DNA from: Candidatus Woesearchaeota archaeon | GTDB taxonomy: Archaea > Nanobdellota > Nanobdellia > SCGC-AAA011-G17 > JACPNG01 | NCBI GenBank assembly: GCA_016185615.1 | Contig: JACPNE010000002.1 | Location: forward strand, 5,253-69,252 | DNA length: 64,000 nucleotides | Reading direction: 5' to 3' | Shown here: positions 22,379 through 43,890 of the stretch, one piece after another | Numbering within the stretch: the stretch's first letter is position 1 | Layout of the letters: every line of letters begins with the position of its first letter | Made by a program: the position numbers and the translations under genes | The notes under the pieces: model-generated | What the model was told of the DNA's origin: nothing | Seen by the model: the letters and a program-made list of their open reading frames with translations, nothing else | The model's database searches: none

Positions 22379-22833
22379 TTTTCCATTACCCTTGTATTTG
22401 ATAGTCTTTCAGTATATCTCTGTCCATTGCTGTTGAACATGAATATTGTGTCTATTATTAATAAAGGTAGTGAAATTTTTGTTATATTCCTTATTAATAT
22501 TTGTAGAAAATCAAAATTTCTTGTAGTTGAGACAACCTCAAGATTCATAATATACTTTCCGACAGTTTGTCTCATCTTATATTCTAATGATGCCCAATAT
22601 ATTAAAGAGATGACGGAAACCATCATACTTACTAATAAAATAGATCTTAAATCATTAAATGCCATGCTAAAAACATTTTCTGCATAAAAAATATTTAATT
22701 TATTTCTAAAAGGAGAAATTATTAACATTATAACAAATGAGTCAATTATATATGCTGCTAATCTTTTCCAAAAAGAAGCAACATTGTTCTTTCCTAATAG
22801 CTTATTTAATTCACTTTTTTTGAGGCGCATCAT
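22375..22833 (-). CDS. RDD-family membrane protein
   Basis: 'WKRLAAYIIDSFVI' start of the RDD domain and 3 TM segments. 4-nt overlap with sppA. Confidence 0.55.
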   Translation of the reverse strand: MMRLKKSELNKLLGKNNVASFWKRLAAYIIDSFVIMLIISPFRNKLNIFYAENVFSMAFNDLRSILLVSMMVSVISLIYWASLEYKMRQTVGKYIMNLEVVSTTRNFDFLQILIRNITKISLPLLIIDTIFMFNSNGQRYTERLSNTRVMEK

Positions 22834-22891
22834 TTTATTAAAAAATTATCATATATAAAAACTATTATTTTTATTCAAACTAATTTTATGC

Positions 22892-22936
22892 AATAAAAGC
22901 ATATATGCATATTGAATAAAAGCATATATGCATATT
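22892..22936. repeat. Tandem 22-bp direct repeat, each unit containing the perfect palindrome GCATATATGC
   Basis: AATAAAAGCATATATGCATATT occurs at 22892-22913 and 22915-22936, 1 nt apart. Lies in the divergent intergenic region between the RDD gene and the wHTH membrane-protein gene. Confidence 0.85.
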
Positions 22937-23052
22937 AGTAATATTATATGTATAAAAACGAAATTCTTTTAAATAAAACAGCTATAATATTCTAATGTTT
23001 TTTAGGAGGAACTGTTTTCACACACTATATTATATTAGCATTAATTATATTT

Positions 23053-23946
23053 TTGCCTATAACAATGGGCAATGTAGAAGGAGCTACGTTAGATATAGAA
23101 TTTATCTTGAATAGTAATAAAGCACATCAAACATTATCTTATAATTTTTCAAAGCCAATAATCGATAATTCATTAGAATATACAATTGCTAGTGATATTG
23201 ATAGTGTCAACGTATTAGCTAATGGAAAAGAAGCTGATTTTGAAATAAGCCAAAATGAGGAAGTAAATACAATAAAAATAAATTCTTCAGAACCAATTAA
23301 CGATTTACAAATGTCTTTTAATGTAAATGATGTTATATTTAAGAATGGTAATACAAATCATTTTTTTACTGAATTATCTTTAAATAAAACAATTGTTTCT
23401 GACATTTCAGTAAAGGCAGTAATTCCCGCTGGCTATGGTTTATATGATAATTCATTTAAGCCGGAATCTGGAGCAATAACTAGTGATGGACAAAATGTTG
23501 TTGTTGAATGGGACGACGTAGATACAAGTAAACCATTACTTTTTTCTGTTAAATACAGAAAAGTAACTTTTCCAAGTTGGATTTTATGGACTTTAATAGT
23601 TTCATCTTTGACTATCTTAATAATATTGTTATATTTTCAATATCAACAAAAAACAGAGAAAGCAATGTTATACGGTTTTAGGGAAGATGAAAAGAAAGCC
23701 CTTGTATTCATTAAAACACATAAAAATATCTTACAAAAAGAGCTTCAAAATGAGTTTAAATTTTCACGTGCTAAATCTACAAGAATTGTAAAAAGATTAG
23801 AAGAAAAAGGATTGATAAAAAAAGAAGAATTTGGTAGAACAAATAAAATTATGTGGAGGGGGGAATTTTCTGAAAAAAAAGAGGATATAAAAGATCTTAA
23901 TGAAAAATTAAATCAAACATTCAATTTCTGGGAAAAATTAAAATAA
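23053..23946 (+). CDS. Membrane-tethered transcription regulator candidate: extracytoplasmic N-domain, one TM, cytoplasmic winged helix-turn-helix (COG2512-like architecture)
   Basis: TM 'WILWTLIVSSLTILIILLYF' followed by 'EDEKKALVFIKTHKNILQKELQNEFKFSRAKSTRIVKRLEEKGLIKKEEFGRTNKI' (MarR/wHTH-like). The start codon is uncertain (TTG 23053 or ATG 23065). Confidence 0.6.
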   Translation: MPITMGNVEGATLDIEFILNSNKAHQTLSYNFSKPIIDNSLEYTIASDIDSVNVLANGKEADFEISQNEEVNTIKINSSEPINDLQMSFNVNDVIFKNGNTNHFFTELSLNKTIVSDISVKAVIPAGYGLYDNSFKPESGAITSDGQNVVVEWDDVDTSKPLLFSVKYRKVTFPSWILWTLIVSSLTILIILLYFQYQQKTEKAMLYGFREDEKKALVFIKTHKNILQKELQNEFKFSRAKSTRIVKRLEEKGLIKKEEFGRTNKIMWRGEFSEKKEDIKDLNEKLNQTFNFWEKLK

Positions 23947-23982
23947 ATCAGCATTTAATCTGTTTTACTATTTGTTTTTGTT

Positions 23983-24046
23983 ATTGTTTCAAATTGTTTC
24001 AAAGCTGTTTCACATTGTTTCAAGAACAAATTAAGTATCTGAAACA
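23983..24046 (+). promoter_or_regulatory. Phased TGTTTCA x4 array, TATA-like AACAAATTAAGTA, then inverted TGAAACA; candidate operator/promoter of the 24137 gene
   Basis: TGTTTCA at 23985, 23995, 24006 and 24016 (10/11/10-bp spacing). TGAAACA at 24040-24046. The 3' 42 bp are repeated exactly at 26800-26841. Confidence 0.5.
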
Positions 24047-24136
24047 CTTTCTATTTTTGTCATAATGTTAGTGCGCACAATGTATCCTAGGCACATTGGT
24101 TGCACTAGATAGATAAGTATATTTGGGGGTGAAAGA

Positions 24137-26182
24137 ATGAAAAATGAAAAATATAAGCAAATAGCTGGTGCGCTGGTTGTTGTCTTTTTATTGTTAGCAG
24201 CACCTTTTGCTTTTGCTAATGGTTCTGGTGTAGATACATCTAGCATAAATGTAGATGTAAACACAGAATCGCAGTCAGAAGCAAGTGCTGAAGCAACTGG
24301 AGATGATTCTAGTGCGGAAGCAGACGCTAGTTCTGAATCGGGGGTTGAAGTAGATGCCAGTATTTCCGATGGTGATGAATCTAGTGTTGATGTAAAAGCA
24401 GATGCTAAATCTGAAGCAAATGCACAAGCAACTTCTGAAGTAGATGAAGATGATGATTGTGACACTGGATGCGATGATGAAGATACATCAAGTGAAGCTG
24501 AAGCAGAAGCAAGTGCTGAAGCAGAAGCAGAAGTAAGTGTTGAAACATCTTCCGGAACAAGTGATAACTGTGGTAACAAATGTAAACCTAAATGCGACAG
24601 TGATTGTGATGAAAACACATCTAATATAGAAGTAGAAGCAACAGCTGAAGCTGAGTCTGAAGCACAAGCAAGTACAACCTCATCAGGAGGATCTGGTGGT
24701 GGAAGCTGTAATGATTGTGACGAATGTGACACTGGATGCGATGATGAAGATACATCAAGTGCAGAAGCAGAAGCTAGCGCAGAAGCTGAAGCAGAGGTTG
24801 AAGTAGATAATAATAATGACTGTGGTAGTGAATGTGACGAAGATTCAACAATAAAAGCAGAAGCTAGCGCAGATGCAGAAGCTGAAGCAGAAGCAACTGG
24901 AGAAGGTAGTTCAGCATTTTCTAGTGCTGTAGCAAAAGCTGAAGCAACTGTTAATGTAGTCATTTCTGCATGTAATGAGATGATAGATGCAATAGTCAAA
25001 GCCGTTGCAGAAGCCCAAGCAAATGCACAAGCAACTTCTGAAGTAGATGAAGATGATGATTGTGACACTGGATGCGATGATGAAGATACATCAAGTGAAG
25101 CTGAAGCAGAAGCAAGTGCTGAAGCAAGTGCTGGATCATCATCTAATACAAATGACCACTGCGGAAGTAGATGCAAACCTAAGCCTAAATGTGGTACTGA
25201 ATGTAATAATACAGAAGACACATTAGGCGAGGCAAATGCTGAAGCAGAAGCTGAATCAGATGCTGAAGCAGAAGCAAAAGCTGAGTCTGAAGATGAGGGT
25301 GGTGCAGAAGCATTAGCTAATGCCGACGCAGAAGCTGAAGCTGAGGTTGAAGCTGAATTAGACAAAGCTTGTAATGAAGCTAAGGCTTACGCTAAATCTG
25401 TAGCTGAAGGTAGATCTGAGGCTATAACAAAAGTGTATGAACTTATAACTTCATTTGTAGAAGCTATGACTAAAGTATTCACTTCTGCTGAAGTAGATGG
25501 AGATGAATTAGGCATTGCTGTAGCAGAGGCTATGGCTAAAGCTTATGCAGAAGTTAATGTATTTGCTGACGCAGAAGCTGAAGCTTACGCTAAGGCTTTG
25601 AGTGAGGCTAGAGCAGAAGCTGAAGCAAAATGTGGGGAAGCTTCAGAAGCTAAGGCAAAAACTAACGCTAAAGCTAGTGCAGAAGCAAGAGCAGAAGCAG
25701 AAGCAAGAGCAGAAGCAAGTGCAGAAGCTCATGCCGAAGCTGAAGCTCATGCAGAAGCATGCATTGGATCAGATGAGTTATCTGATGCCGAAGCTCATGC
25801 AAAAGCTAGTGCTGAAGCTTCAGCTAGAGCATACGCACATGCAGTAGCATCTGCATTTGCTAGTGCAAGAGCAGAAGCATACGCTAAAGCAGTAGCTAGC
25901 AGTTCTGCTGGAGATGCAAGTGCTAAAGCAACAGCTGAGGCAAATGCTAAAGCCGCTGCAGAAGCTGCCGACAAAGCAGAAGCTGAAGCAGAAGCAAGTG
26001 CAGAAGCTGCCGCTAAAGCAAAAGCGCATGTAGAAGGACTTGGAAAAGCAGAAGCAGATGCTGAAGGTATTGCTCATGCTGAATCAGATGGTGAGGATGA
26101 AGCAAGCGTTGATTCAAACACATTAGCTGAAGACAATGGTGAAGCAGAAGCAGAAACTTTAGCAGAGGCTAGCTCAGAATAA
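24137..26182 (+). CDS. Secreted hyperacidic Ala/Glu-rich protein with Cys-cluster modules and (Ala-X)n tracts; function unknown
   Basis: GGGGGTGA SD 6 nt before the ATG. Signal peptide 'ALVVVFLLLAAPFAFANG'. 681-aa uninterrupted ORF with three 'CDTGCDDEDTSS' modules and C-x3-C clusters. Hairpin plus T-tract after the stop. Confidence 0.75.
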   Translation: MKNEKYKQIAGALVVVFLLLAAPFAFANGSGVDTSSINVDVNTESQSEASAEATGDDSSAEADASSESGVEVDASISDGDESSVDVKADAKSEANAQATSEVDEDDDCDTGCDDEDTSSEAEAEASAEAEAEVSVETSSGTSDNCGNKCKPKCDSDCDENTSNIEVEATAEAESEAQASTTSSGGSGGGSCNDCDECDTGCDDEDTSSAEAEASAEAEAEVEVDNNNDCGSECDEDSTIKAEASADAEAEAEATGEGSSAFSSAVAKAEATVNVVISACNEMIDAIVKAVAEAQANAQATSEVDEDDDCDTGCDDEDTSSEAEAEASAEASAGSSSNTNDHCGSRCKPKPKCGTECNNTEDTLGEANAEAEAESDAEAEAKAESEDEGGAEALANADAEAEAEVEAELDKACNEAKAYAKSVAEGRSEAITKVYELITSFVEAMTKVFTSAEVDGDELGIAVAEAMAKAYAEVNVFADAEAEAYAKALSEARAEAEAKCGEASEAKAKTNAKASAEARAEAEARAEASAEAHAEAEAHAEACIGSDELSDAEAHAKASAEASARAYAHAVASAFASARAEAYAKAVASSSAGDASAKATAEANAKAAAEAADKAEAEAEASAEAAAKAKAHVEGLGKAEADAEGIAHAESDGEDEASVDSNTLAEDNGEAEAETLAEASSE

Positions 26183-26210
26183 GCCCTTCTGGGCTTTCTT
26201 TTTTTATTTT
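26182..26210 (+). terminator. Hairpin (AGCCC-TTCT-GGGCT) followed by T-rich tract
   Basis: 5-bp GC-rich stem at 26182-26195, then TTTCTTTTTTTATTTT. Oligo-T is the usual archaeal termination signal. Confidence 0.5.
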
Positions 26211-26265
26211 TAAAAATTGATTTAGTAATATATTCAGATGATAAAAAAGAATCTATCGAGGAAAA

Positions 26266-26571
26266 ATGGGATCAAAATTAAAGTTCATGCTAATTACAAT
26301 ATTTGGATTAACTTCAGTACTAGGAGTTATATTTACGAGCTTATTGATCCATGAAGGAATTCATATCTTACAATTAGGAGAAGCAGAAAGCATTTGTTAT
26401 GACATGCAACAGGATACATTTATGCATGTCTCTCATGATTTAAACAAAGTATACAATGGAAAAATAATTTATAATGAGAATATAGGTTACTGGGAAAAAC
26501 AGGCAGTTATAGGGGAAAATATCTTTTTAGTGTTATTAAGTATGTTGATGGGTTTTATTTTAAGAAGATAA
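26266..26571 (+). CDS. Small two-TM membrane protein with HExxH motif
   Basis: 'LLIHEGIHILQ' lies directly after the first TM helix, and a second TM is at the C-terminus. 101 aa. Confidence 0.45.
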   Translation: MGSKLKFMLITIFGLTSVLGVIFTSLLIHEGIHILQLGEAESICYDMQQDTFMHVSHDLNKVYNGKIIYNENIGYWEKQAVIGENIFLVLLSMLMGFILRR

Positions 26572-26594
26572 AATAATGTGGGGGGGGTGTAACA

Positions 26595-26783
26595 ATGAAT
26601 AATCTAAGTAATTATTTAATCGAGATGAAGGGTGTTTCGAGTAGCTTGATAGAAGAGACAGATTTTTGTAGACAATATATACTTTCAAGAATTAGTAAAA
26701 TAATAACAAGTTCAACCCATACATCTATAGAAAAATTGAATCTTATCACACAATTTGAGGGGGGGTGTAGTTTTGCTAGATAA
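26595..26783 (+). CDS. Hypothetical 62-aa protein
   Basis: ATG preceded by a G8 tract plus TGTAACA (SD-like). No family recognised. Confidence 0.35.
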   Translation: MNNLSNYLIEMKGVSSSLIEETDFCRQYILSRISKIITSSTHTSIEKLNLITQFEGGCSFAR

Positions 26784-26799
26784 TATTACTAGAATATGA

Positions 26800-26841
26800 C
26801 TGTTTCACATTGTTTCAAGAACAAATTAAGTATCTGAAACA
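26800..26841 (+). promoter_or_regulatory. Second exact copy of the 42-bp TGTTTCA/TATA/TGAAACA element
   Basis: CTGTTTCACATTGTTTCAAGAACAAATTAAGTATCTGAAACA is identical to 24005-24046. In both copies ATAATG follows exactly 16 nt downstream. Confidence 0.55.
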
Positions 26842-26890
26842 GTCCTTATTCAAATTATAATGGGCACTATATCAACTGGGGGTGACAAAA

Positions 26891-28453
26891 ATGAAAATGA
26901 ACAAATTTAGTGCAATTATTTCAATATTAATTATTGTAGCTTTACCCTTAGTTATAGCACAAGGAGTAAATGATACAATAAATGATAGCTTGGGAAACAA
27001 CACAATGAATGAATTGAATAATATGAGCAACAATACACAGACATTAAATGATACAAGCACTTTAAACAATAATAGTAATGATACTTTCAACGATACCTTA
27101 GACGAAAGTGATGAAATATTGGAAGAAGATTTGATGAATGATTCGGAATTGGAAAATGATTCTGATAATGAAAGTGTACAAACTATGGATGAGGAAGTAA
27201 CTTCAACAAATTTAGGATTCCGTCAATTAGGAGAAGCATTAAATGATTTTATGTTTAATCTTCAATCAGCTTTTACATTTAGGGAAGAATCAAAATTGGA
27301 GTTACTTCAGGATAGGGTAGAAGAATTAAGAGTACGTCAACAAGAATGGGTTGAATTAAAACAACAAGCATTAATTAAATTTGATAGTGAGGAATCTGAC
27401 GCAGAGGAGAAACAGGATGTTTTAGATAGACTTAAAGAAAAACATAATGACATAATAAAAGATTATGTTGAAGTCATCTATGATTTAAATACAATTAAGG
27501 TTGAAGCAAGGGAAGATGGAGAAATAGATATAGAACAAAGAGCAAATAATTTCGCATTAGGAATAGAAGATTCTGATCTTTCACTTGGATTAAATACTAA
27601 TAGTGAAGCTGATTTAGCAGAAGAGATAGATAATGAATCAACAAGTGAAACTAGTGTTTCTGCTCAAGAGGCTATAGAAATTGCTGAAGATGAGTTTGAT
27701 TTTGATGCAACTAGCGTTACTGAAAGGGAGATGAATGGTCGATTAGTTTATCTCGTTGAAGGAACCAGAAGTGATACCTTTGGAACAACAGAATTAGATG
27801 GAATATATCAAGTATTAATTGATGCAAATACTGGAATTATCTCGTCTGTCAATATTAATATAGATATAGCATCAGGAGAGACTATAGAAAATGATTCATT
27901 AGGCATTGATAATCAAACAGCCAGTAATCAAACAACTAATCAAACAACTGGTAATCAGTCTATTGGTAATCAATCCAGAACAATGAATGAATCAAGAACA
28001 AATAGAACTGATAACAGAACTGAAGCTGGGGGGGAGGTAGAAGAAGACATTGAAATTAGAATTAATGGAAATATCAACTTTTCAGAAGAAGATGAAGAAA
28101 TGCTTAGGGATTTAGTTGAAGATTTTATAGAGTCAACTAATGAGGCAAAAATTGCAATAGAGGTTGATAAAGATGGGGGAGCAATTTCAATTGCAAGCAG
28201 TATAGCTGGAGATTTAACCTCTGAACAAGAGGGGAGATGGGATGAGATACAAGAAGAGATAAGATCATTAGTGAGTGAATTTTCAAGTGTCCAACTTAGG
28301 ATAGAAGCAGAGAGAGAATTTAGTGGAGAGTCTAACCAAACTAGTTCAAGCAGAGCAAGTGCTAGTGCCAGAAGTGAAAGTGAGAATGAAACTGCTAATG
28401 CTAGAGCAAGGAGTGAAGCTAGAAGTGAAAGCAGTTCAAGTAGTGACTATTAA
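26891..28453 (+). CDS. Secreted PepSY-domain protein with two N-glycosylation-sequon-rich linkers and a Ser/Ala/Arg/Glu low-complexity tail
   Basis: SD GGGGGTGA precedes the ATG at 26891, so the track GTG at 26882 is less likely. Signal peptide 'FSAIISILIIVALPLVIAQG'. PepSY-like 'SAQEAIEIAEDEF...MNGRLVYLVEG...YQVLIDANTGIISSV'. Confidence 0.65.
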   Translation: MKMNKFSAIISILIIVALPLVIAQGVNDTINDSLGNNTMNELNNMSNNTQTLNDTSTLNNNSNDTFNDTLDESDEILEEDLMNDSELENDSDNESVQTMDEEVTSTNLGFRQLGEALNDFMFNLQSAFTFREESKLELLQDRVEELRVRQQEWVELKQQALIKFDSEESDAEEKQDVLDRLKEKHNDIIKDYVEVIYDLNTIKVEAREDGEIDIEQRANNFALGIEDSDLSLGLNTNSEADLAEEIDNESTSETSVSAQEAIEIAEDEFDFDATSVTEREMNGRLVYLVEGTRSDTFGTTELDGIYQVLIDANTGIISSVNINIDIASGETIENDSLGIDNQTASNQTTNQTTGNQSIGNQSRTMNESRTNRTDNRTEAGGEVEEDIEIRINGNINFSEEDEEMLRDLVEDFIESTNEAKIAIEVDKDGGAISIASSIAGDLTSEQEGRWDEIQEEIRSLVSEFSSVQLRIEAEREFSGESNQTSSSRASASARSESENETANARARSEARSESSSSSDY

Positions 28454-28507
28454 ACTTTAACTCAATTAATTTATCTTTTCTTTTTTTATTTATCTTTGGA
28501 GGATAAA

Positions 28508-29236
28508 ATGAAGAAGAGGTTTTTAAAATGGAAACAAGAAATGAAACTATCTATTAAAAAAGAATTAAATAATGAGAAGTATATTCATAATATCGCACTT
28601 GGAGCAAGTGTTGGAACATTTATCTCTACAATTCCCACACCAGGAATTAATATTCTACTTGCATTATTAATATCATCCATACTTAAAATATTCGGAAAAT
28701 CAATGAGTTTATGGGCTGTTTTTGCATCTTTTGCTTTTTGGAATCCAATAGTGCAATTTCCCATTTATATAGGAAGTATGACTATTGGTTATCTTTTATT
28801 TCAGAGACCATTTCCACAGGATTTACTATCATTTGAGATGATAAAAAACTTTTCTATTCAATATTTTATTGGAGCATTTATATTAGCTTTAATTATATCT
28901 CCACTTTCTTATTTTTTAGTAATAAGAATTTTAAAATTGTATAATAAAAGATCAGATACAACTAACTATGATAAAAGTTTTAATACATTTACTATTTCAA
29001 AAATTAAATTATTACTTTTTATTATTGTTATAACCTCTTTACCATTAGTTTCCGCTTTGAATATAGGCTCACAGTCATCCCACAAGACTTATTCAGATGA
29101 TTCAGATATATTAACAACTAATAATAACATTAATACAAAGTTATCTGATGTTAAGAATTTACTTAGTTACTTAAATTATTTTAATACTACAAAAGAAAAA
29201 ATATCATCAATATTAAATCAGGATAATAATGAGTAG
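28508..29236 (+). CDS. Polytopic membrane protein, DUF2062-like
   Basis: 'NIALGASVGTFISTIPTPGINILLALLIS' resembles the DUF2062 core. GGAGG lies 5 nt before the ATG at 28508, so the track TTG at 28496 is less likely. Confidence 0.5.
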   Translation: MKKRFLKWKQEMKLSIKKELNNEKYIHNIALGASVGTFISTIPTPGINILLALLISSILKIFGKSMSLWAVFASFAFWNPIVQFPIYIGSMTIGYLLFQRPFPQDLLSFEMIKNFSIQYFIGAFILALIISPLSYFLVIRILKLYNKRSDTTNYDKSFNTFTISKIKLLLFIIVITSLPLVSALNIGSQSSHKTYSDDSDILTTNNNINTKLSDVKNLLSYLNYFNTTKEKISSILNQDNNE

Positions 29237-29293
29237 AATATTTACATCATATATAAAGTAAGAATATAGTAAAATCTATTTTGGGGTGAGTTT

Positions 29294-29422
29294 ATGGCAT
29301 CAAGCGTTACATTGGGAATAATAAGCATAATCTTTGGAATAGCAGTAATAGCATTTCCAAAATTTTTGAGATTTATCATTGGATTGTATTTTATACTCAG
29401 TGGAATACTCATTTTAGTATAA
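29294..29422 (+). CDS. 42-aa two-helix membrane peptide (absent from ORF track)
   Basis: 'MASSVTLGIISIIFGIAVIAFPKFLRFIIGLYFILSGILILV' preceded by TTGGGGTGAGTTT. Confidence 0.4.
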   Translation: MASSVTLGIISIIFGIAVIAFPKFLRFIIGLYFILSGILILV

Positions 29423-29469
29423 TCTATGATTAAAAACCTTTATATATTTAATAATATAATTAAAATTCA

Positions 29470-29910
29470 ATGGATAACGACAATAAGATGCTTATATTGG
29501 CTGTTGTAGTTGTTGTAGCATTGGGATTCTTAGGGTTTGTATTTGGTGATTTGACTGGATATGCTACTAGAGATAGCAATGAAAAAATATTAACAAGATT
29601 TTATATATCATCTAATCCAGATATTATTGAAGAGTTTAATCCTACAATTGGAGCAAGTGATTTTGTTTATTTTACAGTTGAAGTTGGAAGTGCAGGAGTA
29701 AATGATCAGATTTCTTTTTATGAAGTAGACGGATTGAATGAAAGAAGAAGATCCCAAACATATATTGGATGTACTGGATATATATGCAGGCCAAACAGAG
29801 TTGAAGTAAAGAAATATAAAATTCCATCTTCATGGGAAGGAGAATACTGTGCTAAGGTTTATGACAGGGAATTTGCTGAAGATGTTAAAACTTGTTTCTT
29901 TGTAGAATAA
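29470..29910 (+). CDS. TM-anchored small extracytoplasmic 4-Cys domain protein (paralog of 52185-52655)
   Basis: N-terminus 'MDNDNKMLILAVVVVVALGFLGFVF' and C-terminus 'GC.GYICR...CAKVYDREFAEDVKTCFFVE' align with the 52185 ORF. Confidence 0.5.
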   Translation: MDNDNKMLILAVVVVVALGFLGFVFGDLTGYATRDSNEKILTRFYISSNPDIIEEFNPTIGASDFVYFTVEVGSAGVNDQISFYEVDGLNERRRSQTYIGCTGYICRPNRVEVKKYKIPSSWEGEYCAKVYDREFAEDVKTCFFVE

Positions 29911-38674: not shown

Positions 38675-38696
38675 AACTCTTGCACTTCTGCAATAT

Positions 38697-38780
38697 GCGG
38701 GAGTGTCAGAGCGGTCAAATGAGCTAGCCTAAGGAGCTAGTGGCTTAGTGCCTACGCAGGTTCGAATCCTGTCTCCCGCA
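38697..38780 (+). tRNA. tRNA-Leu (class II, long variable arm); anticodon reads AAG by hand folding
   Basis: Acceptor GCGGGAG/CTCCCGC. Anticodon stem CTAGC/GCTAG with loop C-T-A-A-G-G-A. Variable-arm stem GGC/GCC. T arm GCAGG-TTCGAAT-CCTGT. No encoded CCA. Confidence 0.85.
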
Positions 38781-38788
38781 ATAAGAAA

Positions 38789-42844: not shown

Positions 42845-42964
42845 GTGATGAACAGCATCCCAGATTTCCCGCTCAAAGAGTAGTACAGTCTGAAACGTTG
42901 ACCCGTTTTACTGCCGAGTTCGGAATGGGATCGGGTAGTTCCAGGTCACTATGACCGTCCATCA
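42845..42964 (-). rRNA. rrf: 5S rRNA (orphan, not linked to 16S/23S in this window)
   Basis: Reverse complement reads GATGGACGGTCATAGTGACCTGGAACTACCCGATCCCATTCCGAACTCGGCAGTAAAACGGG...CTGTTCATC. Helix I closes, with two G-U pairs. GC-rich patch in an AT-rich context. Confidence 0.85.
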
Positions 42965-43815: not shown

Positions 43816-43890
43816 GGGGCTGTGGTGTAGCTTGGTCTATCATCTCGGGTTTGGGACCCGAGGACCTCGGTTCGAATCCGGGCAGCCCCA
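43816..43890 (+). tRNA. tRNA-Pro (anticodon TGG)
   Basis: Acceptor GGGGCTG/CAGCCCC. Anticodon stem TCGGG/CCCGA with loop TTTGGGA. T loop TTCGAAT. Confidence 0.85.

Follow-up and report, generated by a model that had tools for sequence, protein, structure and literature searches.

We analysed a 64,000-nt stretch (hereafter the window) of contig JACPNE010000002.1, positions 5,253 to 69,252 of the forward strand, from the Candidatus Woesearchaeota archaeon assembly GCA_016185615.1. Its subject here is a gene at 24137..26182 on the + strand whose product carries alanine at every second position over long runs. The gene is the longest open reading frame (ORF) at its position, comprises 2046 nt with the stop codon included and encodes 681 residues; we term the product the alternating-alanine (A-x) protein. 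Three segments were distinguished, all on the + strand: a Sec-type signal peptide (24137..24217, residues 1-27), a polyanionic N-terminal part (24218..25348, residues 28-404) with a duplicated module of ~201 residues, CxxxC clusters and short (EA)n runs, and a C-terminal Ala-rich domain (25349..26179, residues 405-681) with 35% Ala, for which four long helices are predicted. A Shine-Dalgarno-like site, GGGGGTGA, lies upstream of the ATG, and a terminator-like hairpin with a T-run (26171..26205, + strand) follows immediately 3' of the stop codon. On inspection, the signal peptide runs from MKNEKYKQ through a hydrophobic core, AGALVVVFLLLAAPFAF, to an AFA/NG cleavage site, and AlphaFold2 models this region as a helix (residues 3-28). 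The A-x protein thus appears to be secreted via a classical Sec signal, in agreement with an earlier sequence-only reading of this DNA. The mature protein has a net charge of -134.

Alanine makes up 25% of the protein and 43% of the interval 25560-26040 (residues 475-635), which that reading had flagged, while 82 of the 86 other window ORFs of at least 100 residues contain 1-9%. The exceptions include an antisense ORF at 24031..25365. We do not count this ORF as a gene, since it is a reverse-complement image of the GCN-GAR codons, shares its third codon positions with the + frame and leaves the flagged region uncovered. The GC content is 30% over the window and rises to as much as 42-47% in the A-x gene. 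GC at third codon positions (GC3) is 0.137, the same as in neighbouring genes, so the raised GC stems from the Ala and Glu codons. Taken with the Ala codons used (85 GCA and 75 GCT), the native GC3 indicates that the Ala composition has been imposed at the protein level, in the native codon usage.

The period-2 alanine pattern is real and lies far beyond chance. A scan for the strict A-x-A register found 16 runs of at least 7 residues, and such runs hold 75% of the residues of the flagged interval. Both strings quoted in the earlier reading are present. The first, SAEARAEAEARAEASAEAHAEAEAHAEA (residues 514-541), falls within run 1 (25667..25759, + strand; residues 511-541, 31 residues), which is of an AEAEAR/AEAEAH hexapeptide type; the second, AEAHAKASAEASARAYAHAVASAFASARAEAYAKAVAS (residues 551-588), covers run 2 (25787..25897, + strand; residues 551-587, 37 residues), in which Y, V, F, Y and V are spaced i+4, i+4, i+8 and i+4. 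Shorter runs are scattered through the protein, as had been stated, at 121-131, 209-219, 322-332, 366-382 and elsewhere. The autocorrelation of Ala was -0.29 at lag 1 and +0.62, +0.51 and +0.42 at lags 2, 4 and 6, and the strongest Fourier component of Ala had a period of 2.02. Compared with 5000 composition-preserving shuffles, A-x-A pairs were in excess (123 observed, 43.1 +/- 4.9 in the shuffles, z = 16) and AA neighbours were scarce (6, with 43 expected, z = -7.5). At 37 residues, the longest run exceeded both the shuffle mean of ~8 and the shuffle maximum (21 over the entire protein, 25 within residues 475-635). In the DNA, Tandem Repeats Finder reported degenerate arrays of period 6, 12, 18 and 30 with GCWGAA-type units, bearing out the 6-nt periodicity noted previously. 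The period-6 arrays in the gene match at only 64-75%; the DNA of run 1 contains an 18-nt unit in 2.2 perfect copies.

The sequence-only reading had interpreted this pattern as a self-assembling beta-strand of the EAK16 kind (AEAEAKAKAEAEAKAK). Strict alternation of Ala with charged residues and a high compositional helix propensity are indeed shared by the tract and EAK16, a self-assembling repeat of yeast zuotin. The Chou-Fasman mean propensities of EAK16 are 1.38 for helix and 0.69 for sheet, and we rejected such propensities as a discriminator of helix and strand, because EAK16 scores the same as the tract. The charges are more informative. EAK16 is neutral, with 4 negative and 4 positive residues in a regular two-negative/two-positive order, whereas the tract is acid-dominated and irregular. 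Over all runs, the X positions (n = 103) hold Glu 46 times, Ser 13 times and Ala twice, with Lys, Arg, His, Tyr, Val and Phe also represented; 49 are D/E and 16 K/R. Unlike EAK16, therefore, the tract admits Ser, His, Tyr, Val and Phe at X. In run 511-541, the X positions comprise 8 acidic and 3 basic residues with 2 His. Only runs 551-587 (3 negative, 4 positive) and 594-610 (2 and 2) are charge-balanced, their order being irregular, and the runs of the N-terminal part carry 2-5 negative residues with at most one positive and mostly none. The net charge is -14 in the flagged region and -36 over residues 405-681. The A-x tract thus lacks the ionic self-complementarity that defines EAK16. Moreover, EAK16 assembles as a free 16-mer, while the tract here consists of runs of 30-40 residues within a conserved 277-residue domain.

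Helix and strand make different predictions for the spacing of the X residues. Eisenberg hydrophobic moments peaked at 180 degrees, which merely restates the Ala/charged alternation and is uninformative on structure; a permutation test on the spacing of X residues within runs (the X-lattice test) was used instead. In the C-terminal runs, large hydrophobic X residues were absent at i+2 (0 observed, 2.3 expected, P = 0.022) and enriched at i+4 (5 observed, 1.9 expected, P = 0.005), with 3 pairs at i+8 where 1.2 were expected. Examples of i+4 series are V462, M466 and Y470, and Y566, V570, F574, Y582 and V586, the latter with one i+8 step. Enrichment at i+4 with avoidance of i+2 is what a single helical face, flanked by Ala stripes, would show; a strand with its whole X face pointing one way would mix hydrophobic with charged residues and would be expected to look different. 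Run 511-541 has an Arg or His at intervals of six residues, accompanied by Glu at i+/-4, although opposite charges at i+4 showed only a weak trend overall (P = 0.09). The 100-degree peak of large hydrophobic residues reached 1.46 in residues 370-450 and 0.93 in 405-646, where it equalled the 180-degree peak.

A model of residues 367-650 generated by AlphaFold2 contained helices at 368-450, 455-542, 549-589 and 594-649, with a mean predicted local distance difference test (pLDDT) score of 65 and a predicted template modelling (pTM) score of 0.35. The interruptions between these helices coincide exactly with Gly/Ser/Asp-rich breakers between the runs (CIGSDELSD, SSSAGD and VEGLGK), and neither run 511-541 nor run 551-587 includes a Gly, Pro or Asn. 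The prediction goes against the beta-strand of the sequence-only reading, at modest confidence and as supporting evidence only.

Amphipathic beta-strands with an all-Ala face, assembling into EAK16- or silk-like extracellular fibrils or membranes, are accordingly less likely than a helix and, in our estimate, unlikely. The strict and highly significant alternation of small apolar with polar residues is what such strands would require, the protein is secreted, runs 551-587 and 594-610 are nearly charge-balanced, and EAK16 itself, for all its helix-favouring residues, gives a beta-sheet circular dichroism spectrum as a free peptide (PMC2387071). Assembly of this kind might need the Glu residues to be neutralised by divalent cations or low pH, and a switch responding to cations or pH could be provided by the His residues together with the surplus of acidic ones. 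Against it stand the excess of acidic X residues, overall and in run 1, the preference of hydrophobic X residues for i+4, the predicted helices and the absence of turn formers from runs of 31-37 residues, since a single strand of that length is implausible. We take the EAK16 sequence to lie within the middle domain of zuotin. In the native protein that domain is helical, forming a long alpha-helix in the full-length complex (PMC8060413); the self-assembling EAK repeat was identified in zuotin (PMC7889856).

In the sequence databases searched, the A-x protein has no relatives outside its own lineage. Scans against Pfam and NCBIfam identified no family or domain. A word-index homology search with the full protein returned compositional matches alone, to bacterial (AEAK)n tracts, at no more than 72 bits, and an exhaustive phmmer search with residues 29-480 (residues 481-681 being excluded from the query) against 1.84 billion representatives gave 0 matches at E <=0.001. 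An exact-sequence look-up found no record of the protein. A scan of viral contigs produced no match, so the gene bears no sign of viral origin. Sequence searches of the PDB matched only (QA)n low-complexity tracts of eukaryotic proteins and similar sequences. By these searches, the A-x protein appears to be an orphan restricted to one species-level lineage.

Selection on the gene was assessed by comparison with a sister strain from a JGI metagenome (L001), whose regulator protein, encoded upstream, is 94% identical to that of the window. Residues 405-681 differ from L001 by 9 synonymous and 0 nonsynonymous substitutions; with 192 synonymous and 639 nonsynonymous sites, 9 of 9 synonymous differences would arise by chance with a probability of ~2e-6. 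Residues 1-404 differ by 19 synonymous and 17 nonsynonymous substitutions, a ratio of nonsynonymous to synonymous rates (dN/dS) of 0.24, and all 17 amino-acid differences therefore fall in the N-terminal part. The two halves differ in substitution type (Fisher's test on direct counts, P = 0.007). For the whole gene dN/dS is 0.17, while the flanking genes show values of 0.07-0.32 and an amino-acid divergence of at least 6%. The A-x gene is thus a real gene under purifying selection, with the tail very strictly constrained. As a separate observation, the synonymous divergence (dS) of the gene from L001, 0.05-0.08, is two to four times below that of its neighbours (0.12-0.20). This may reflect strong codon restriction (GCA/GCT and GAA), selection acting on the nucleotide sequence or an exchange of the gene between strains in more recent times.

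Further groundwater metagenome assemblies were recovered via the downstream gene. The protein sequence of the tail is identical and free of indels in those that cover it, save for a block of Ns in L021 and, in L024, a junction collapsed at the repeats, where repeat copies are joined as a chimera. The N-terminal half, by contrast, varies by indels of 1-2 codons, and one 201-residue module is lost in some assemblies; two independent ones (L002 and L018) lack precisely the module flanked by a 132-nt repeat, giving 480 residues in place of 680-681. The loss is either real copy-number variation or assembly collapse; Logan short-read contigs stop at the start of the A-x gene.

These comparisons bear on two further explanations. 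The first is that the feature is non-functional, being a spurious ORF or a neutral repeat expansion in an intergenic insertion. The lack of homologues, the low complexity and the mirrored antisense ORF would fit such an origin, yet the substitutions in the tail are exclusively synonymous, the tail is identical in independent groundwater assemblies, and a signal peptide and Shine-Dalgarno-like and terminator-like sites are in place. We regard this explanation as very unlikely. The second holds that the whole protein, tail included, is a polyanion devoid of stable secondary structure and intrinsically disordered, serving at the cell surface as a cation sponge or entropic brush, and that its period-2 pattern is a by-product of hexanucleotide repeat growth. 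The charge of the mature protein, the degenerate 6-, 12- and 18-nt tandem arrays in the DNA, pLDDT values below 50 in the AlphaFold2 model for residues 22-257 and 298-386, and the eukaryotic (QA)n tracts matched in the PDB all point in that direction. However, disordered spacers usually tolerate substitution and change in length, as the N-terminal half does here, whereas the tail is better conserved than any other part of the island in which the gene lies; the i+4 hydrophobic stripe and the regular spacing of Glu and Arg indicate a defined structure, and recent slippage does not explain a tract with mixed Ala codons and a period-6 match of only 64-75%. For the protein as a whole, we consider disorder rather doubtful.

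The N-terminal part is a different matter. Residues 28-404 have a net charge of -98 and hold 19 of the 22 Cys residues, in cluster motifs set in Asp/Glu-rich sequence (CDTGC, CGNKCKPKCDSDC, CNDCDECDTGC, CGSEC, CGSRCKPKPKCGTEC and DEDDDCDTGCDDED). Residues 84-138 recur nearly identically at 285-339, corresponding to a 132-nt repeat with 94% identity (24392-24523 and 24995-25126) whose copies lie 603 nt apart and border one 201-residue module. AlphaFold2 places a single helix, at 258-299, between the low-confidence stretches given above. The N-terminal ~380 residues would therefore form a largely disordered polyanion with repeated CxxxC clusters amid Asp/Glu, and the clusters may serve in binding cations or metals or in disulfide cross-links.

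Short, purely acidic (EA)n runs (EESEE) come after the Cys clusters. Comparable EAEA spacers of yeast alpha-factor and the pro-region of promelittin are trimmed stepwise by dipeptidyl aminopeptidases, and the (X-Ala)n runs might likewise be spacers or pro-sequences whose removal frees Cys-rich module peptides. The position of the short runs directly after each CxxxC module (as in ...DDEDTSS-EAEAEASAEAEAE) would suit this scheme, as would the small membrane protein with an HExxH motif encoded next door. Nonetheless, the Pfam scan revealed no dipeptidyl peptidase encoded nearby, the longest runs are C-terminal with no peptide after them, and the runs are under strict purifying selection, X residues included. 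We know of dipeptidyl stepwise processing only from eukaryotic secretory pathways, and consider this scheme extremely improbable.

Comparison with other Ala-rich sequences showed that the A-x motif itself is not novel, and its novelty as a natural tract had been overstated in the sequence-only reading. Database matches included strict A-x runs of up to 177 residues with up to 12 overlapping exact EAK16 copies and balanced charges, so that bacterial tracts far longer and more EAK16-like than this one exist. Carriers were proteins with FtsY/SRP-GTPase Pfam domains, an AsmA-domain protein, protein kinases with peptidoglycan-binding domains and others. Domain II of TolA, a tandem repeat rich in Lys and Ala, forms a long alpha-helix outside the cytoplasm, and its repeat number differs among E. 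coli strains (PMC3477136). In TolA domain II and in the FtsY, AsmA and kinase spacers, as here, long A-x tracts are built from short degenerate DNA repeats, and the extracytoplasmic TolA helix resembles the helical rod predicted for the A-x protein. The A-x tract has an Ala- and charge-rich composition and degenerate 6- to 30-nt repeats; its helix is predicted at a pLDDT of only ~65. TolA-type spacers are charge-balanced linkers from a membrane anchor to a globular domain; the A-x tract has neither a flanking globular domain nor an anchor, the sole candidate for the latter being a cleavable signal peptide, and it further differs in being acidic and length-invariant, in its i+4 hydrophobic stripe and in the lack of sequence homology. 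The A-x tracts of native proteins studied so far, TolA domain II (PMC3477136) and the middle domain of zuotin (PMC8060413), are long alpha-helices.

Other precedents fit less well. In the beta-crystallites of (GA)n and poly-Ala silks both positions are small (Gly, Ala or Ser), which lets the sheets stack tightly, while X is Glu in 46 of 103 positions here, with only 13 Ser and 2 Ala. The (Gln-Ala)n repeats of TCERG1, Med15 and Spt20-like proteins, which gave the best PDB sequence matches, also show strict A-x alternation, but these proteins are uncharged, nuclear and eukaryotic and the match is purely compositional. ER/K single alpha-helices (SAHs) are very rich in Glu, Lys and Arg, with opposite charges at i/i+4 and almost no apolar residues; run 511-541, by comparison, is 52% Ala with E/K/R at 11 of 31 positions, and i+4 charge pairing is weak (P=0.09). 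The Alacoil motif and the coiled-coil silks of bees, ants and hornets, which are secreted, contain ~30% Ala and pack their helices closely through heptads with Ala in the core, offer a possible model for assembly via two Ala stripes per helix. Those silks are heptad-based, whereas the dominant period of the A-x protein is 2 with a secondary signal near 3.6, and no homology to them was found.

The A-x gene lies among genes with envelope-related features. Upstream is a gene (23053..23946, + strand) for a membrane-anchored winged-helix protein (DUF7343/MarR-like; Pfam DUF7343 and MarR at residues 212-267), presumed to be a regulator, whose homologues in Woesearchaeota and Aenigmarchaeota are 35-46% identical; an identical protein is annotated from a Candidatus Woesearchaeota archaeon, and a scan of genome contigs with this protein gave no match. 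Downstream is a gene (26266..26571, + strand) for a 101-residue protein with two predicted transmembrane segments, the first of which is closely followed by HEGIH, a zinc-protease-like HExxH motif. It matched nothing in Pfam or NCBIfam, and its homologues were strain-level copies only. A 62-residue ORF that follows at 26595-26783 is preceded by a G-rich Shine-Dalgarno-like site of its own, and gene calls in other assemblies include it. Next comes a gene for a secreted PepSY-domain protein (26882..28453, + strand; Pfam PepSY), the conserved partner of the regulator in relatives. In two of three neighbourhoods examined (L013/L014 and L017), a PepSY orthologue (BLASTP E of 1e-45 in L013 and 7e-35 in L017) and a DUF5667 protein are encoded directly downstream of the regulator, and in the third (L015/L016) a DUF5667-like protein comes next after it. 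This adjacency in relatives indicates that the A-x and HEGIH genes are an insertion specific to the present lineage. The PepSY protein is rich in Asn in its N-terminal region, where N-x-S/T sequons are numerous, and ends (28352-28431) in a period-2 Ser/Ala/Arg tail of its own, RASASARSESENETANARARSEARSESSSS, encoded by a degenerate 12-nt repeat. A common origin of the A-x and PepSY proteins, considered on account of the period-2 tail and a shared 5' region, was rejected, as no significant protein similarity was found.

On a larger scale, the five-gene block of regulator, A-x, HEGIH, PepSY and DUF2062 genes (23053-29236), which sits between an RDD gene and a gene for a 146-residue 'MDNDN' protein, is missing from two other Woesearchaeota (L003 and L004; ELP3 81-83% identical). 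Both keep the flanking Cdc6, S49 peptidase, RDD, 'MDNDN' and ELP3 genes (compared interval 22833-29470). Absence of the block with retention of its flanks marks it as a variable envelope island. Neither an integrase nor a tRNA was found at its borders.

The insertion is bracketed by copies of a cis element. Upstream of the A-x gene (23985..24067, + strand), the element reads TGTTTCA(C/A)-ATTGTTTCAA ... TGAAACA, with two tandem half-site copies, and a second copy (26800..26862, + strand) lies upstream of the PepSY gene. The two form a 63-nt direct repeat (24005-24067 and 26800-26862) of which the first 42 nt are identical. It contains the element TGTTTCAC-N-TTGTTTCAA-N14-TCTGAAACA (N~14 across relatives), which combines a direct repeat with an inverted half-site. 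In relatives, the element directly follows the stop codon of the regulator gene (L013 5805-5880, L015 6876-6950 and L017 6819-6890), and it is kept across Woesearchaeota and Aenigmarchaeota in which the regulator proteins are only 37-41% identical. Regulator, PepSY and DUF5667 genes would make up an undescribed DPANN envelope cassette, for which the element is a likely operator or promoter. As the A-x gene owns a copy of this conserved element, it is probably co-regulated with the PepSY gene.

Elsewhere in the window, Pfam identified Cdc6/Orc1 and ELP3 among the neighbours, which marks the source as archaeal. An ORF of 564 residues at 115-1809 contains 32 Cys, has a pI of 4.4 and gave one weak, sub-threshold Pfam match, to the C-terminal domain of squalene-hopene cyclase; it may encode another Cys-rich secreted protein. 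A tRNA-Leu(AAG) gene (38696-38781), a 5S rRNA gene (42847-42962, - strand) and a tRNA-Pro(TGG) gene (43816-43890) provide a housekeeping context downstream, and the region around them contains many small basic ORFs resembling ribosomal proteins.

Taking these observations together, we lean towards the A-x gene being a lineage-restricted gene of groundwater Woesearchaeota for a secreted, very acidic envelope protein whose Ala-X tail is a structural or oligomerisation module of long helices. The C-terminal ~280 residues would form a few very long alpha-helices separated by the short Gly/Ser/Asp breakers. With Ala at every second residue, each helix would present two opposed stripes of small residues, with the X residues occupying the two stripes that remain. 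Stretches in which Y, V, F or M takes every other X position would give the helix a broad, flat apolar face; those in which Glu alternates with Arg, Lys or His at i+/-4 would keep it soluble and stabilise it by salt bridges. Close packing of such helices could yield a hairpin, a bundle or a coiled-coil oligomer, and would make the domain a structural or oligomerisation element, a rod or scaffold displaying the acidic N-terminal part on the cell surface. The gene would be expressed under the same control as the PepSY gene, presumably via the adjacent membrane-bound winged-helix regulator.

Several points weigh against this helical module. The AlphaFold2 models had pTM scores of only 0.32-0.35, a low to moderate confidence obtained from single-sequence input, and AlphaFold2 would call any sequence rich in Ala, Glu and Lys helical, EAK16 included, so that its prediction does not discriminate. 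The i+4 test draws on only 9 large hydrophobic X positions in the C-terminal runs. No confident tertiary arrangement was predicted, and a Foldseek search of the PDB with the C-terminal model found nothing with E <5. At low ionic strength, the net negative charge could prevent some of the domain from folding. A function for the A-x protein is suggested neither by homologues or domains nor by any characterised neighbour, and we infer both the operator role of the cis element and the topology of the regulator.

A variant of the helical module would be switchable. The charged helices would be soluble until Glu and His are neutralised by divalent metal or lower pH, and the module would then assemble into sheets or fibres; association may proceed via the opposed Ala stripes or by an alpha-to-beta transition. 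We consider this quite unlikely. If true, it would provide an extracellular matrix or attachment layer for a host-dependent DPANN archaeon, and a natural counterpart of designed EAK- and RADA-type materials that arose de novo in a single lineage. A tail that assembles would offer a compact natural scaffold sequence for biomaterials, and one that does not would be one more Ala-rich helical rod. For alternating Ala/charged patterns in general, the informative questions concern charge complementarity and the i+2 or i+4 spacing of hydrophobic residues, resemblance to EAK16 alone being uninformative.

The kind of sequence described here was already known, and what is new is its acidic, archaeal and secreted variant. 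Its evolutionary interest is that of an orphan, low-complexity secreted gene that was apparently inserted into a conserved DPANN envelope cassette, gaining a copy of the cassette's cis element, and whose repeat-derived tail is now under very strict purifying selection.

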